A DNA stretch of 29,855 nucleotides from a virus (taxonomy: Duplodnaviria; Caudoviricetes), in IMG/VR virus record IMGVR_UViG_3300016467_000162, positions 1 to 29,855 of that record, one strand, 5' to 3'. The notes under the pieces were generated by a model. That model had not been told where the DNA came from. It ran no database searches and worked only from the letters and a program-made list of their open reading frames with translations. Shown here piece by piece: positions 1,221 to 20,478 of this stretch (the first letter of the stretch is position 1; each line of letters begins with the position of its first letter). The translations under genes were made by a program, and so were the position numbers.

Positions 1221-1625
1221 TTAATCTGTAATTGTGTAAGTTCCTGTAAATGATACCGTATAAGATACCACATCTTCCATTGGTGCATTCACTTCAATGC
1301 TTTCTACATAAGCTAAGCCAGTATAATAAGCAGTCGCTAAAGTAGGAGAAGCAATTAAAATGTTTATAGGTGTTCTTGCATCGTAAGCAGCCATTAAAGT
1401 TGTAATACCTAAATCAGAAGCACCCTCAGCAAAATCTACCAAAGCATCAGCCGTAAAAGCAAAATCCCTTAAACCTGGCAATGAAACTGAATAACCTGCT
1501 GATTGTTTACAAGTAGCATCTATCATTGCATCGTTTAAAGTAACCGTTACTCCTCGTTGGCACATCAAAGGGAAATTTGAATCTGCATCATAAAGTAAAA
1601 TATCTGAACCGTTTAATACACTCAT
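1221..1625 (-). CDS. Tail tube protein paralog, copy B
   Basis: DATCKQSAGYSVSLPGLRD and APMEDVVSYTVSFTGT align with copy A; same length, 134 aa. Confidence 0.8.
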   Translation of the reverse strand: MSVLNGSDILLYDADSNFPLMCQRGVTVTLNDAMIDATCKQSAGYSVSLPGLRDFAFTADALVDFAEGASDLGITTLMAAYDARTPINILIASPTLATAYYTGLAYVESIEVNAPMEDVVSYTVSFTGTYTITD

Positions 1626-12418: not shown

Positions 12419-12907
12419 CTAAAATTCATTAATCCAAAAAGCAGTATGCTCTTTATTGTTTATAATCACATCAAATTTTAAATTAAATTGTTTAATAAAG
12501 TCAAAATAATAAAATTCAAATGTACTTGTTGCTAAAATAATAATAGGATTAAATGGTGTTTTTGATAATAAATATTGATAAGACATAATTTGTCCAAAAG
12601 CATTAAATGTTTCAGATTTATCGTGTCTTGGGTTTTTACATTCAATTAAAATATCTTTACCTTGTTTAGTAGTTATATAAATATCAGCATAAATTGAAAA
12701 TAAATCATATTCATTTAATATAAATCGTTTTTCTAATTCAATATTATCTATATCTAAACCATAAGCATTTTTAATTATAGCATCTAATTTAGGTAATAAA
12801 TTATCAGTAAATTCTTTTTCACTATTAAATTTCTCTTTTAAAGAAACACATCCTTGTTCTAAACTTATATAATTAATCTTCTCTAATTCTTCTGTTTTAT
12901 ATGCCAT
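12419..12907 (-). CDS. PD-(D/E)XK family nuclease-like protein
   Basis: E-x..ADIYI...IECK...AFGQIMSY motif arrangement; visibly AT-rich. Confidence 0.7.
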   Translation of the reverse strand: MAYKTEELEKINYISLEQGCVSLKEKFNSEKEFTDNLLPKLDAIIKNAYGLDIDNIELEKRFILNEYDLFSIYADIYITTKQGKDILIECKNPRHDKSETFNAFGQIMSYQYLLSKTPFNPIIILATSTFEFYYFDFIKQFNLKFDVIINNKEHTAFWINEF

Positions 12908-14108
12908 AATCTACTCCGTTTCTTTTAATTTTAATTGTTGGGTCAAGTTTACGCATTCGGTCTACTATTACTTGGCAATACTTTGGGTCTAATTCCATAC
13001 CGTAGCATTTACGATTAAGTTGGTGTGCTGCTACCATTGTTGTTCCAGTTCCCATAAATAAATCTAATACTGATTTAGCAAAATCCATTTTTTCTATTAT
13101 CCAAGCTGGAAAAGCAATAGGAAATGTAGCTTTATGAATTTGTGCATAATCATTACCACTTGCATTTTCAGTTTCAATTACATTTGGAAATTTACCTTGC
13201 CATTTACAAGGAAATCCTCTTGTTTCATTTTTTTCACTAAAACAAAATACATATTCCCATTTAGTATTAAATGCACCTTTTACAATATTTGGTGGACATT
13301 GTGATTTATTCCAAATTAATATATCTTTTAATTGTTCTTTTAATTTATATTGATAATCTATTAATGTAAATTTATTTTGTGCTAACATTTGAATATTTAT
13401 AAAAGAATATGTTGCAAAAGTTATTGAATTTATTGTAAAATCATATAAAAATTGAATATATTCTTCATCTGTTTTTGCATCATTTTTATTTTGATATTTT
13501 TCATCAAAACCTTTAACCCTACCATTAAGATGACTATTTTTTGCTGCATTGTATGGAGGACTTGTAAATGCCATATCAGCCTTTTGACCATCCATTAATT
13601 TAGCTACTGCATCACTATCTGTTGAATCCCCACAAAGTAACCTATGTTCTCCAATTTCAAATAAATCCCCTAAAACAATATCTGTTTCTATTCCACCTTC
13701 AGGTGCTTCAAAGTCATCCTCTTCAGCTTCTAATTCTTTACCAAAGTCTGGCACATCTAATCCCCAAGCATCAAGTTCTTCTGCATCCCATTCGTTAGCT
13801 AACATATTCCAATCCCATTCGCCACCGCTTACATTATCTTTAATAATAAACTGCTTTTGTTCTTGTTCTGTCAAATCGCTTACTTTAATAATTGGAACTT
13901 CTTTTAATCCAGCGTGAATACAAGCCTTTAATCGCATATTTCCACCTAAAACAATCATATCATCATTTACGACAATAGGTCTTATTTCAAGCATCTTTGG
14001 GAACTCCTGTATTGATGCTACTAATTTCTTAAACTTGTCATCCTTGATAATTCTTGGATTATTAGGGTTTGACTTTACTAATTTTATGCTTACTAATTCG
14101 GTTTTCAT
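12897..14108 (-). CDS. ParB-like domain fused to an N4/N6 DNA methyltransferase (beta class)
   Basis: NPNNPR...LGGNMRLKA (ParB); FTSPPYN catalytic motif precedes the LDLFMGTGTT SAM-binding motif. Confidence 0.9.
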   Translation of the reverse strand: MKTELVSIKLVKSNPNNPRIIKDDKFKKLVASIQEFPKMLEIRPIVVNDDMIVLGGNMRLKACIHAGLKEVPIIKVSDLTEQEQKQFIIKDNVSGGEWDWNMLANEWDAEELDAWGLDVPDFGKELEAEEDDFEAPEGGIETDIVLGDLFEIGEHRLLCGDSTDSDAVAKLMDGQKADMAFTSPPYNAAKNSHLNGRVKGFDEKYQNKNDAKTDEEYIQFLYDFTINSITFATYSFINIQMLAQNKFTLIDYQYKLKEQLKDILIWNKSQCPPNIVKGAFNTKWEYVFCFSEKNETRGFPCKWQGKFPNVIETENASGNDYAQIHKATFPIAFPAWIIEKMDFAKSVLDLFMGTGTTMVAAHQLNRKCYGMELDPKYCQVIVDRMRKLDPTIKIKRNGVDYGI

Positions 14109-15399: not shown

Positions 15400-16350
15400 T
15401 TAAAAAGGTAATATTTTTGGTTGTTCAAATGTAACATATTTTCCTGCATAACTTTTAAGTCCGCCAATTTCTTCATAATAACAGTTCTTCCATCTATCAA
15501 AGAATAAAGTAGCTTCTCCTATTTCTCCAACTCCTTTAGGTTTAGTCTTTTGCACTATAATCTTAACTTCATTAGCCTGGTAAGGAATCCCATCTTTTGC
15601 AACTCCGAATGGTGGTCTCCAAACGCAAATCATTTGCTCTCCCTTTCTAAAGGATGTTTCTCCGCCATCAATATATCGTGGGTCAGCAGGTGGGTAATAT
15701 TTAATTCCAGTAGATTCATCTATAACCTTTGCGCCTACTTCTCTCGCTATGTGCATAATGATTGTGTGATGGTAATTGTATTCCCTTGCATACATCCTGA
15801 TTTTACCTAATACTCGAGCCATATACATATCTCTAACTTCTCCGTTTAGTTCGTGCTTTACTTCGTTAAAAGGGTCGGTAGTTACCGTATCGAATTTAAT
15901 TCCATATTTTTCAACTGCTAAATGAAAGTCATCTAAAGTTATATCTTTTACTCCTAAGTCCATAATGTAGAAATATTGGCTAACCTCTAATCCGTACCTG
16001 TAAAGTTCTTGTTTAGTTAGTCTTGCTATTTTATTCCCATCTAAGTCAAAGAAAGGTTTACCTGCCCACTTATGAATTATCTCTGCAAATATCTCTGCTG
16101 GAGTTCCTGTCTCAGGAGAAAATATTAAATGCTTCCACCCTTTAGATTTAGATAAGTTAATTAAACATTCCCACCAAAATTCAGACTTGCCTGAAGCAGG
16201 AGTTCCGTAGATGTAACTTGTAGCACCCTTTTTAAAAGATATTAGCTTATCTATTTCGGAGAATCCAACCGTTTCGCCTTTGATTAATCCTGTATCATAT
16301 AACGAATCTAATTCGCTTAATACATCTTCATATTTTTTAATAAAGTCCAT
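15400..16350 (-). CDS. SF4 (DnaB/T7 gp4-like) replicative helicase, no primase domain
   Basis: Walker A GTPASGKS, FSPE, DPFN, MHIAR, QKTK; follows the initiator. Confidence 0.8.
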   Translation of the reverse strand: MDFIKKYEDVLSELDSLYDTGLIKGETVGFSEIDKLISFKKGATSYIYGTPASGKSEFWWECLINLSKSKGWKHLIFSPETGTPAEIFAEIIHKWAGKPFFDLDGNKIARLTKQELYRYGLEVSQYFYIMDLGVKDITLDDFHLAVEKYGIKFDTVTTDPFNEVKHELNGEVRDMYMARVLGKIRMYAREYNYHHTIIMHIAREVGAKVIDESTGIKYYPPADPRYIDGGETSFRKGEQMICVWRPPFGVAKDGIPYQANEVKIIVQKTKPKGVGEIGEATLFFDRWKNCYYEEIGGLKSYAGKYVTFEQPKILPF

Positions 16351-16997
16351 TAGTAGTAAAATGTTGGTATGATAGGTGCTTGTATTTTCTTTTTATTCTC
16401 ATCTTTAAACCAGTTGTTTAGCATCGTATTCTTCCAATTGACAACCTGATTGCCTTTGCTATTTTTCCAACCTAAATTATTGTAGTAATGATACGCTTTA
16501 TTTGCGACTTCTCTTGAATATCCATTTTCATCAAAGTAAGCTAAAACATCTTCTAAAGTAGGGTTTATTATTTCATCTACCTTTACTTTACTTCTATTTA
16601 CTTTACTTATCTTTACTTTAGATGTGTTACGAACTTGTTTGAAATGCGTTTCATTTTCTGTAACTTGCTGATTTTCACGCCATTGTTTCAATCTTTCTGC
16701 GGTTTTTTCTTTTTTTATCTTGTAGTTTTCACTATACTTTAGCAATTGTTTGTTGAAACTTTCTCCATTGTTTGATGAAATTAGTCCAATAGTTTCCATA
16801 AATGACCAGCATTTCTCCAGCTTTTTACCTATGTTTAATTGCTTTTTTAAGACTGATGTTTTGACTGGTTTTTCTTGTTGAGCAAACTTCTCTAAGGCAG
16901 TGTAAAATAATCCCAAACCTTCATAGCCAAAAGCCATATATAATTCGGTTATTTTCTCATCATTAAATGAATTGCTATCGTGTAGATAATATTTCAT
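16350..16997 (-). CDS. Replication initiator (Lin1244/DUF4373-like N-terminus)
   Basis: YYLHDSNSFNDEKI...GLGLFY, low-complexity linker, C-terminal PTLEDV...GW...NWK; upstream of the helicase. Confidence 0.75.
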   Translation of the reverse strand: MKYYLHDSNSFNDEKITELYMAFGYEGLGLFYTALEKFAQQEKPVKTSVLKKQLNIGKKLEKCWSFMETIGLISSNNGESFNKQLLKYSENYKIKKEKTAERLKQWRENQQVTENETHFKQVRNTSKVKISKVNRSKVKVDEIINPTLEDVLAYFDENGYSREVANKAYHYYNNLGWKNSKGNQVVNWKNTMLNNWFKDENKKKIQAPIIPTFYY

Positions 16998-17005
16998 AAA
17001 TATGT

Positions 17006-17101
17006 AAAAAAAAGAATCCCACCAGGTCGAGATTTGGCAGGATTCAGGTTATTTAATAACCATTTAGTAATTTCATCTGTTCTCGACTCCAAATGAAACT
17101 A
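17006..17101 (-). ncRNA. Structured leader RNA with complementary loops and a terminator (candidate attenuator)
   Basis: Three hairpins; loop GUCGAGA (17081-17087) is complementary to terminator loop UCUCGAC (17026-17032); U8 tail. Confidence 0.65.
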
Positions 17102-17105
17102 TATG

Positions 17106-17113
17106 CAAATATA
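17106..17113 (-). promoter_or_regulatory. -7 promoter element TATATTTG
   Basis: Matches TAnnTTTG; predicted start coincides with the first base of hairpin 1. Confidence 0.75.
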
Positions 17114-17119
17114 CTAAAA

Positions 17120-17782
17120 TTAATCAATTATTTCTTCAATATCTTCTTGTTCAGGAATCCAAGCCATTGAAAATTCTTTATTTGCAAACATTTCGGTTAA
17201 TCCGCTTATTTGTGTTAATCTTAAAACTTCATCTCTATCCATACCTAATTCTTTAGATATTTTTTCATCACTCCAATTTCTTCTTTTTAAATCAACTACA
17301 ATATCTGACATAGATTCTACTTTGTGTTTCCCTCTTGCTCTATTATGCCTAATAGTAGATGCAACTCTATCATTTTGACCTTTTTGAGATTCCCTAATTG
17401 TAACTACTGGTAAATACCCGTGAACCCTACTTTGTATATCTTCACATTCTTTACCAACTCTATTTCTATGGAATCCATCAATAACTTCTCTTGTGCCATT
17501 ATTATTATCCATTGAAACAATAGGTTGAGTATATCCATCGTTTGCTATTGATAATCTTAATAATTCCATTTCAGGTGGTGCTACTGAATTTGGATTATAA
17601 TCATTTGCAATTACAGTATTATTTTTAACCCATATAACACAATCTACTGGTTCTGTATTAAATGGAGATATTTCGTGCAACATTAATTTAATTTCATTAA
17701 TCAAATCAACTTTTTCGTCAATTGTTAAATCAACAATTTTATTAATAATTTCTTTTTGGTGGTTAATTAATATATTTTTCAT
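17120..17782 (-). CDS. ParB/Srx-fold protein (IbrB/YbdM-like)
   Basis: ANDYNPNSVAPPEMELL, DGYTQPIV, IDGFHR, STIRHNRARGKH, C-terminal HTH. Confidence 0.9.
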   Translation of the reverse strand: MKNILINHQKEIINKIVDLTIDEKVDLINEIKLMLHEISPFNTEPVDCVIWVKNNTVIANDYNPNSVAPPEMELLRLSIANDGYTQPIVSMDNNNGTREVIDGFHRNRVGKECEDIQSRVHGYLPVVTIRESQKGQNDRVASTIRHNRARGKHKVESMSDIVVDLKRRNWSDEKISKELGMDRDEVLRLTQISGLTEMFANKEFSMAWIPEQEDIEEIID

Positions 17783-17785
17783 AGT

Positions 17786-19003
17786 TTAATTTTCTAAAAA
17801 TTTATTTTCGGTTCTTTGTTTTTTCTTTAATTCTAAATACTTTTTATAAGCATCTGTTTTATGCTGAGTAAATCCTAATCCTTTACACCAAAAATCATTT
17901 CTTAATAAAGACTTACATATTCTTCTCCAACTTGGTGCTAATTTTTCAGATTCTAAAATATAAGGGGCTTCATCAGGTATTCCTTTTGAATATCCTCTTT
18001 CTTCCCACCATTTTATAAAAGTATAAATTTTGTTTAGATAATGTTCTTTTGTTATATCAGGTATAGAATTTAAAAATAGCATTGCAAATGATTCCCAAGT
18101 ATGGTTTTTAGGTTTTGTTATTTTATTATATCCTGTTATAGAACCACTTTCATTAATATACAATGCGCCTGAATTTGCTCCATTTACTCTTGCAACAACT
18201 TTTGCCCAAGTTTCAGGTTCTATTAAATGGAATAACCATAATCCTCTTCTTTGGTCATCTCCATATGGTTGACAAATTCTTTGTTGATGTATAGATACGC
18301 CAGCTTTAAACATTAATTCATAAAGTTGATTAAATCTTTTATTTTCATTTTTTGAATGGTAAATCCAAATATCTTCAGTAGTCCAATCATAAATTGGATA
18401 AACATTAAATACACTATTTGTAACTTTTGTAGTATAAACTTTTTTATCTAAAGTTATTTTAGTTTTTGAACTTATTGTTCTATATCTATTTAATGATTCA
18501 TCAGAACGAATACCTACTAAACAAGCAGTTAATTTACCTTCAGAATACCATTCCCCAAATTCAGGCACAAATTCTTCAAATTCCATACCATCTCTAAAAA
18601 ATGGAAAATAATTTAAATCAGTTATTGCTTTACTTGGTTGTTCTCTTATCCAATTTTCTTTTTGTTCAATATCCCAGCATTTCCAAAATGGTTCATAAAC
18701 TGAAACAGCATTTCTTAAATGAATAGGTAAACAAACCCAGTACAAATCAATATAATCTTTATATTCTTCTATACAATGTTCAATATGTTCTATTGTAAAT
18801 TTATATTGTCCTTCTAAATCTACTATAAGTAACCCTATTTTTTTATTTCTTTTTTTTACTTCATCCATTACTAAATGAAGCATTACGGTAGAATCTTTAC
18901 CAGCACTAAAAGATAAATAAGTTTTTTCAAATCTATCTAAAGTCCATTTGATACGTTCTATTGAAGCATCAAATACATTCTTATCTAATCTTATTTTAGG
19001 CAT
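17786..19003 (-). CDS. PAPS-reductase-like protein with DUF3440 (IbrA/YbdN-like)
   Basis: PP-loop SFSAGKDS, GIRSDESLNR, YPIYDW, QRICQPYGDDQ, PSWRRICK. Confidence 0.9.
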   Translation of the reverse strand: MPKIRLDKNVFDASIERIKWTLDRFEKTYLSFSAGKDSTVMLHLVMDEVKKRNKKIGLLIVDLEGQYKFTIEHIEHCIEEYKDYIDLYWVCLPIHLRNAVSVYEPFWKCWDIEQKENWIREQPSKAITDLNYFPFFRDGMEFEEFVPEFGEWYSEGKLTACLVGIRSDESLNRYRTISSKTKITLDKKVYTTKVTNSVFNVYPIYDWTTEDIWIYHSKNENKRFNQLYELMFKAGVSIHQQRICQPYGDDQRRGLWLFHLIEPETWAKVVARVNGANSGALYINESGSITGYNKITKPKNHTWESFAMLFLNSIPDITKEHYLNKIYTFIKWWEERGYSKGIPDEAPYILESEKLAPSWRRICKSLLRNDFWCKGLGFTQHKTDAYKKYLELKKKQRTENKFLEN

Positions 19004-19691: not shown

Positions 19692-20058
19692 CTGTCTCTT
19701 TTAACTTTTTAATGTACAATAATGTTTGTTCTGAAATAACTTTAATTGAATCTATCCTTTCTTCTAAAGAATCGTGATAAATATGCAGTTCTTCAATACT
19801 ATCTGTTAATTTATAGCCTTTAGATGTTGCTATTATATTTGGAGCAGTTGTTCTTCTAAGATAATTAATGATTGCCCTAATTCTTGCACCATTTAATTTT
19901 GGATAAATTCCGTTTGCATCAGACCAGTATACAAGCGATATTAAATCTTGGCTTTTATAAAATAAAGGATTTTTCCTTAAAAAGTTTTCAATAACCTTTG
20001 CGCATTTTTTTTCGTGTTCGGTTATTTTGTAGGTGTATTCTTCAAAATTGGTTATCAT
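19660..20058 (-). CDS. Hypothetical protein, possibly winged-helix
   Basis: RIRAIINYLR...IIATSKGY pattern. Confidence 0.55.
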   Translation of the reverse strand: MITNFEEYTYKITEHEKKCAKVIENFLRKNPLFYKSQDLISLVYWSDANGIYPKLNGARIRAIINYLRRTTAPNIIATSKGYKLTDSIEELHIYHDSLEERIDSIKVISEQTLLYIKKLKETDGFFRRLQKE

Positions 20059-20214
20059 ATAGTTTGGCTTTAAAGTTTTAAAATACCTACGCTACTCATA
20101 GGCACTTGGGTGCTACCCTGTTTAAATTGTTAAACTTTTCCCAAAATCTTTTTTCCAGGACACCTCTTATCTTTACCGCAAAAAGAACGCTTGTAGCAGC
20201 AGTAATATCGTTAA

Positions 20215-20478
20215 TTAAAAGGGTAAACTTGAATCCGTTTGTGTAGTAGTTTCTTCTACCTTGCCTTGTCCCCATAATACTTTACCATTTCCTAAATAAG
20301 TCTTAGGTGCTTTTGCATCTCTTTCTTCTTTAGACTGGCTTAATGTGATTGAAACATTGTTACCGAACTTATCGTTCTTGTCATCCACTATGATAGATAC
20401 ATTTAAGTATTTACCTTTTACTAATTTTTCTCTGTCGATTCTTGTTACATCAATAGATGCGCTGATAATTGAACTCAT
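20215..20478 (-). CDS. Putative single-stranded DNA-binding protein
   Basis: Small beta-rich protein ending DSSLPF, next to ERF and exonuclease. Confidence 0.6.
   Translation of the reverse strand: MSSIISASIDVTRIDREKLVKGKYLNVSIIVDDKNDKFGNNVSITLSQSKEERDAKAPKTYLGNGKVLWGQGKVEETTTQTDSSLPF

Follow-up and report, generated by a model that had tools for sequence, protein, structure and literature searches.

Does the segment at positions 17006–17113 of the phage genome analyzed here (29,855 nt, the whole stretch being hereafter called the window) encode an RNA that decides whether the replication genes behind it are transcribed? The original prediction had described on its minus strand a promoter, two long hairpins with complementary loops, a small hairpin between them and a terminator ending just before an initiator gene, and had proposed that pairing of the two loops gates expression of the initiator and helicase. 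Our analysis indicates that this leader is probably a kissing-loop attenuator acting on phage replication genes. It points to widespread RNA control of replication in the phages of Bacteroidota, including virulent phages, in which attenuation would not be expected to serve lysogeny.

Architecture of the Leader

Every predicted feature is present at its coordinates on the minus strand. Read in this direction, the leader opens with the box TATATTTG (17106–17113), a putative promoter element of the Bacteroidota -7 type that places the predicted transcription start near position 17101. We call this promoter because a -7-type box recurs upstream of loop 1 in 45/46 homologues and because TATATTTG matches what we take to be the Bacteroidota consensus; the motif TAnnTTTG is not enriched in the source genome (46 occurrences seen vs. 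49.8 expected). The 5' hairpin, P1 (17068–17101), has 12 bp, namely 11 bp with two G-U pairs between arms 17100–17090 and 17079–17069 plus an extra U-A pair (17101/17068), and is indicated by the fold and by double changes in relatives. Its 10-nt loop (17089–17080) carries segment A, GUCGAGA (17081–17087), flanked by two purines on the 5' side and one on the 3' side. A small hairpin follows, P2 (17047–17061), whose arms, GGUU/AACC, are invariant and whose loop varies in length, and then P3 (17014–17045), a predicted intrinsic terminator hairpin of 11 bp and -13.8 kcal/mol. The arms of P3 (17045–17035 and 17024–17014) again include two G-U pairs, and its 10-nt loop (17034–17025) carries segment B, UCUCGAC (17026–17032), the complement of segment A; the two stems, their loops and the matching heptamers are thus as originally claimed. 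The U8 tract that forms the predicted termination site (17006–17013) lies 8 nt from the ATG at 16997. A U tract follows P3 across the family, most members of which have their ATG approximately 9–16 nt past the hairpin.

The centroid fold of the leader consists of exactly P1, P2, and P3, with a folding z score of -3.53 and 1 of 200 shuffled sequences folding equally well. The A:B duplex has an energy of -9.3 kcal/mol. Neither heptamer recurs elsewhere in the 29,855-nt genome, and a 7-bp complement between random 10-mers of that genome was obtained in 340 of 200,000 draws. In all 46 family members examined, folding favors the sense over the antisense strand (for P1 of the source phage, -9.0 vs. 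-2.2 kcal/mol).

In the pT181 and pIP501 antisense attenuators, as in the pseudoknots of IncI and IncB rep genes, pairing of RNA loops gates the replication initiator, and plasmid copy-number attenuators are controlled by a countertranscript. Could an RNA from the opposite strand likewise control the phage leader? The position of an initiator gene behind the terminator would suit such control, as would the presence of different loop alleles in close relatives, but TAnnTTTG was found on the opposite strand within 200 nt in 3/46 cases (a scan confined to this promoter type), the antisense strand folds worse throughout, and complementarity between A and B would be unneeded. The phage leader also differs from the plasmid attenuators in having neither a conserved antisense promoter nor a leader peptide and in having the partner loop within the terminator of the same RNA. 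We consequently regard a countertranscript as highly improbable.

Conservation of the Loop–Loop Pairing

Loss of loop complementarity among homologues had been named beforehand as the observation that would speak against the original prediction. The opposite was seen, since pairing is retained through double changes. In a profile-based census, 191 upstream regions yielded 89 family matches, 47 of them unique; apart from one partial match that could not be parsed, all (46/46) show 7–9 Watson–Crick pairs between the two loops. We also ran a blind test with a pattern that described the terminator of the sister clade alone, with three core loop bases left free and loop 1 unseen. It returned 102 loci, and an exact upstream complement was present in 98 of the 101 that had enough upstream DNA, distributed among four alleles (58, 24, 12, and 4 loci); in the three misses the loop sequence is unique and the flanks are unrelated. 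Loci L026 and L027 have a wholly different 9-nt kiss pair and are followed by a closely related initiator.

Pairs were then counted clade by clade in two alignments, A3 (13 sequences, P3 omitted) and A4 (11 sequences, P2 omitted). The kiss pairs are 100% paired in both, with double changes at 2/7 positions in A3 and 3/7 in A4, while P1 has double changes at 6/12 and 5/12 pairs, respectively. Conservation extends to the initial G-U of segment A and to the arms of P2; because the five pairs of P2 never vary in A3, its pairing is without covariation support. RNAalifold returned no consensus structure for the first MAFFT alignment of 36 sequences, because two clades were out of register in it. A tree of 62 rows, restricted to those with both halves matched and hence showing turnover rather than covariation, contains nine loop types and at least 13 changes. 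Loop alleles differ between close relatives and a few of them dominate; we do not claim diversifying selection, since variation in P1 is as great as in the kiss.

These comparisons establish the leader as a real, strongly supported RNA structure and show that the pairing of A with B is under selection, although covariation speaks to this pairing and not to its timing or effect. They also bear on the simplest alternative, an ordinary leaky terminator in which the heptamers match by chance. A single 7-mer is weak when taken alone, and 4 of 29 control units (promoter plus hairpin, from five genomes) reach 7–8 bp by a loose score; set against the 98/101 loci of the blind test with their matched double changes and the 46/46 of the census, the probability of such a coincidence is negligible, and the compensatory changes rule it out.

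With regard to distribution, a model of the element, R1, found one strong copy per genome in four of the five genomes searched. It is a narrow model, giving no match in genome G008 even though locus L061 of that genome holds the element. The same model gave zero matches in five bacterial genomes, and the leader was absent within 6 kb of the initiator genes of three isolate genomes and one metagenome-assembled chromosome (L096, L097, L099–L101). In RNA run X1, which consists of assembled contigs and gives sequence only, the region is covered and a matched alternative loop allele is included; runs X2 and X3 account for small shares.

Genes around the Leader

The source genome is that of a complete phage with direct terminal repeats (completeness 100), in which every annotated gene is on the minus strand; these genes include terminase, portal, capsid, tape measure, Erf, and NinG. 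Neither tyrosine integrase nor serine recombinase (PF00589, PF07508) was found in five near-complete genomes, namely the source phage and four relatives, which may have a plasmid-like carrier state. From the promoter type, the relatives present in assemblies of Bacteroidota and the related phage proteins, we infer that the host belongs to the Bacteroidota; among phage records with a related protein, 93/94 are Flavobacterium phages.

The leader fills the gap between a ParB-like gene, whose stop lies at 17120, and the gene for a likely replication initiator of 215 aa (16350–16997, minus strand). This protein resembles DUF4373/Lin1244_N, an assignment based on weak family matches (PF14297, E 7e-5, below the cut-off; PHROG 2562, E 3e-6), on similarity of its C-terminal part to annotated replication proteins of Flavobacterium phages and on its DnaB-like neighbor. 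Its AlphaFold model is mediocre (pLDDT 64, pTM 0.34), and Foldseek found no match to this model at E <= 0.001. Short direct repeats at 16568–16620 within the gene, encoding a KVK..SKVK stretch that relatives share, may be iterons of the origin. The initiator gene is coupled to that of a DnaB-like helicase of 316 aa (15400–16350, minus strand; PHROG 239, E 1e-11; PHROG 19, E 3e-8).

How far does the link with replication genes extend? All 70 elements with at least 1 kb of downstream sequence precede one of four types of initiator: 37 of the source-phage type, 19 distant DUF4373 proteins, 5 HTH_36 proteins, and 9 unclassified. A second scan of viral initiators mostly repeated known loci. The proposed connection with the initiator hence stands, while that with the helicase is not constant, since G007 and G010 have unrelated genes in its place. 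At some loci a small gene intervenes between leader and initiator; small or HNH-like genes separate the two in L057, L065, L070, L050, L145, and L163, indicating that this spot accepts insertions. By comparison of sequences, the leader persists while the initiator behind it is swapped. Alleles combine freely with types of initiator, which makes it unlikely that the initiator recognizes the sequence of the loop. The persistence of the leader suggests that regulation is a property of the module rather than of one protein.

Upstream of the leader and outside the element lies a pair of minus-strand genes, DUF3440/PAPS-reductase and ParB-like (17120–19003), which presumably resembles ibrAB. Most close relatives of the source phage have different genes here. 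The pair reads as an insertion, with a matching upstream end in L012–L014.

This gene context also weighs upon the idea that the product is a stand-alone small RNA of approximately 95 nt, in which the kiss would clamp the structure or hold a dimer together, the initiator being expressed by constitutive leakage or through a general antiterminator. The unit does have its own promoter box and terminator, its P2 arms are invariant as a protein site would be, and in most clusters B lies wholly within the open loop of the finished terminator. The leader, however, always stands directly before replication genes and survives swaps of the initiator, is present in one strong copy per genome where found, and in most members has the ATG within about 9–16 nt of its hairpin, so we consider a stand-alone product unlikely.

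Related Leaders and Cultured Carriers

Many other initiator leaders follow the same logic with little likeness in sequence, having a promoter box, a 5' segment that usually lies in a loop and a complement of this segment within the terminator. Our detector of promoters followed by terminators flagged 108 of the 191 loci; real elements such as L028 and L068 escaped it, and it mis-parsed L026, L055, and L175, rows that were kept in the following count. A complement of at least 7 nt to the leader's own terminator is present in 15 of 22 leader clusters, as against 28 of 462 swapped pairs, with the limits that these pairs are not independent, that three clusters are homologous to the family of the source phage and that some rows are mis-parsed. 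Ranking by duplex energy gave a much weaker signal, the own terminator coming first in 4/22 clusters and 12th in the cluster of the source phage.

Segment A is found again just before the AUG in 3 of the 22 clusters and, on visual inspection, in L066 and L176. The resulting A–B–A' layout, in which A' falls within the 25 nt before the first ATG and directly adjoins the start codon, is seen in L044, L049, L165, L166, L145, L163, L066, and L176; in the cluster of L044, A, B, and the copy at the start codon co-vary. This second copy is absent from the source phage and its homologous family.

Related leaders are also present in the records of five cultured Flavobacterium phages, in which the kiss is fully paired with double changes at 4/7 positions and P2 is not conserved. 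Model R1 matches all five weakly, at the correct position. Cultured carriers include mumin6-1, tooticki6-1, and elemoA. Locus L224 (301–432, mumin6-1) and locus L225 have a related leader followed by a small gene and a PF04851 helicase, without initiator and primase. The cultured phages of the mumin group are described as lytic only (PMC7077304). The element can be tested in these cultured virulent phages; together with the matched natural alleles, they render cis and trans models of its action directly testable, and the alleles could yield orthogonal RNA attenuators for Bacteroidota.

Comparison with Known RNA Systems

The element had not been recognized as a member of any named RNA family, and a scan with the covariance models of Rfam 15 agrees: at the gathering score there was no match in the source genome or in 18 loci, and tRNA alone in 20 more, the best weak match reaching 28 of 60 bits. 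We found no description of the element in the literature, our coverage of subscription papers being slight.

The closest likeness in design is to the guanidine-IV riboswitch and its relative Gd4v, which are described as having a 5' hairpin linked by a pseudoknot or kissing loop to a 3' Rho-independent terminator hairpin (PMC11611296, PMC9788692). In the published account of guanidine-IV, the kissing loop hinders the terminator, read-through being favored by the kiss, and shortening of the linker opposes the kiss (PMC11611296). A metabolite-sensing riboswitch of this build, testing the state of the host before replication, would fit the shared topology (PMC9788692) and the conservation of the P2 arms and of the G-U start of segment A. 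Nucleotides in and around the kiss of guanidine-IV are nonetheless reported as highly conserved, whereas 2–4 of the 7 pairs change in the phage leader (a comparison with the description rather than with a base-by-base consensus); the middle of the kiss helix varies freely, and the pair of L026 and L027 is altogether different. Unlike guanidine-IV, the phage leader has neither a fixed core nor a known ligand, and the leaders of cultured phages lack a conserved P2. The genes listed for guanidine-IV and Gd4v are SugE/Gdx, MATE, GNAT, and transaminase, whereas those behind the phage leader are of initiator type in 70/70 cases, neither metabolic nor transport genes. A riboswitch is thus very unlikely.

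The C4 RNA of phages P1 and P7 is an immunity RNA comparable to CI of phage P4. P4 immunity, as outlined in the cited source, depends upon CI RNA together with seqA and seqC, the replication genes lying behind a premature terminator (PMC4825925). The phage leader resembles this system in having a predicted terminator (hairpin plus U tract) in front of replication genes and complementary segments within the leader, and the A–B–A' layout of some relatives, which puts A' at the start codon, recalls seqA/CI/seqC. By the same outline it differs in that the source phage has no downstream target, each heptamer being single in its genome, and in that no integrase was found in the source phage and the carriers in culture are, by the published description, purely lytic (PMC7077304), whereas P4 is temperate.

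Among viral RNA candidates, Fremin 2023 lists the unnamed DNAVirus_4859, _187, and _704 from aquatic phages, within 25 bp of DUF4373 genes (PMC10690425). DNAVirus_4859 (106 nt, 40 sequences) is listed with HTH_36, Phage_rep_O, and DUF4373 and so shares the HTH_36 and DUF4373 context with the phage leader; the three candidates are given 1–3 covarying bases and no terminator call, and the main text makes no mention of kissing loops (PMC10690425). The leader may be one of these candidates, which we compared by their listing rather than by alignments. The FopS RNAs of Bacteroides are also short and terminator-ended, with one copy reported in a phage (PMC11697453), but are described as having a single-stranded 5' seed, 12–15 copies per genome and mRNA targets (PMC11697453), unlike the phage leader, which is single-copy and has a covarying 5' hairpin that pairs with the loop of its terminator.

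Proposed Mechanism

We consider, with a probability of about 60%, that the leader is a cis-acting attenuator in which the loop kiss blocks closure of the terminator and lets transcription proceed into the initiator gene. P1 would fold first, before the terminator. Segment B ends 12 nt ahead of the U tract; judging from the footprint of RNA polymerase, which we used to time the exit of B, this segment would emerge about when the enzyme reaches the U tract, slightly before the loop-closing pairs of the terminator form. Segment A would then catch B while the 5' arm of the terminator is still open, so that closing of the stem would be strained or delayed; failing the kiss, an RNA of approximately 95 nt would be released.

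The direction of this effect is suggested by the short tether that links P1 to P3 (a median of 5 + 1 unpaired nt). By rough geometry, a cis kiss with both stems closed would require sharp bending, to 133 degrees or less in the source phage and to 70–90 degrees in two relatives, whereas the kiss fits easily once the terminator arm is open; the A-U-rich base of P1 may fray. The short tether, the geometry and the competition described for guanidine-IV together lead us to take the kiss as the read-through state, and by this analogy we infer, in line with the original prediction, that the kiss would control formation of the terminator. A kiss of opposite sign, promoting pausing or termination, or one that acts at another step and controls translation of the first gene, appears quite unlikely to us. 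The copy of segment A right before the AUG, in three clusters and two additional loci, means that B can reach the start region, but this copy is absent from the source phage and from the family homologous to it, and the short tether speaks against a kiss that stabilizes the closed terminator.

What would then provide the input to the cis attenuator? Our leading guess is the released RNA, because B is exposed in the finished terminator and because the start codon offers another target in some lineages. By binding loop A of newly made transcripts with its B loop, the released RNA would produce an early burst of initiator synthesis followed by self-damping. A protein-free and ligand-free RNA switch of this kind, by which virulent phages would count themselves and the released 95-nt leader would shut off initiator synthesis in trans, is a possibility that we put forward tentatively. 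The kiss of a terminated leader with itself would be uncomfortable, and its terminator loop would instead kiss loop 1 of new transcripts and, in some lineages, also the copy at the start codon. Shut-off would track the build-up of genome copies, and the loop allele would serve as a recognition code between co-infecting phages. Against action in trans stand the dominance of a few alleles, the equal variability of P1 and the kiss, the fact that these phages show no lysogeny genes and the precedent of guanidine-IV, which achieves this control by acting in cis alone.

Elsewhere in the window, another promoter box is followed after 26 nt by a terminator-like hairpin and U tract (8619–8560, minus strand), with the gene for prohead protease downstream. 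The loop of this hairpin, of 4 nt, shows no complementarity, and the unit may be a sign of general antitermination acting on late genes, which could make the kiss secondary.

Other features of the window lie farther from the leader. Several small hairpins occupy the intergenic region between a putative SSB-like gene and the next gene (20058–20215, minus strand). A gene at 12897–14108 (minus strand) joins a ParB N-terminal domain to a DNA methylase, with the terminase genes downstream, and two tandem genes of 134 aa (795–1199 and 1221–1625, minus strand) both match the major tail protein PHROG 1407.
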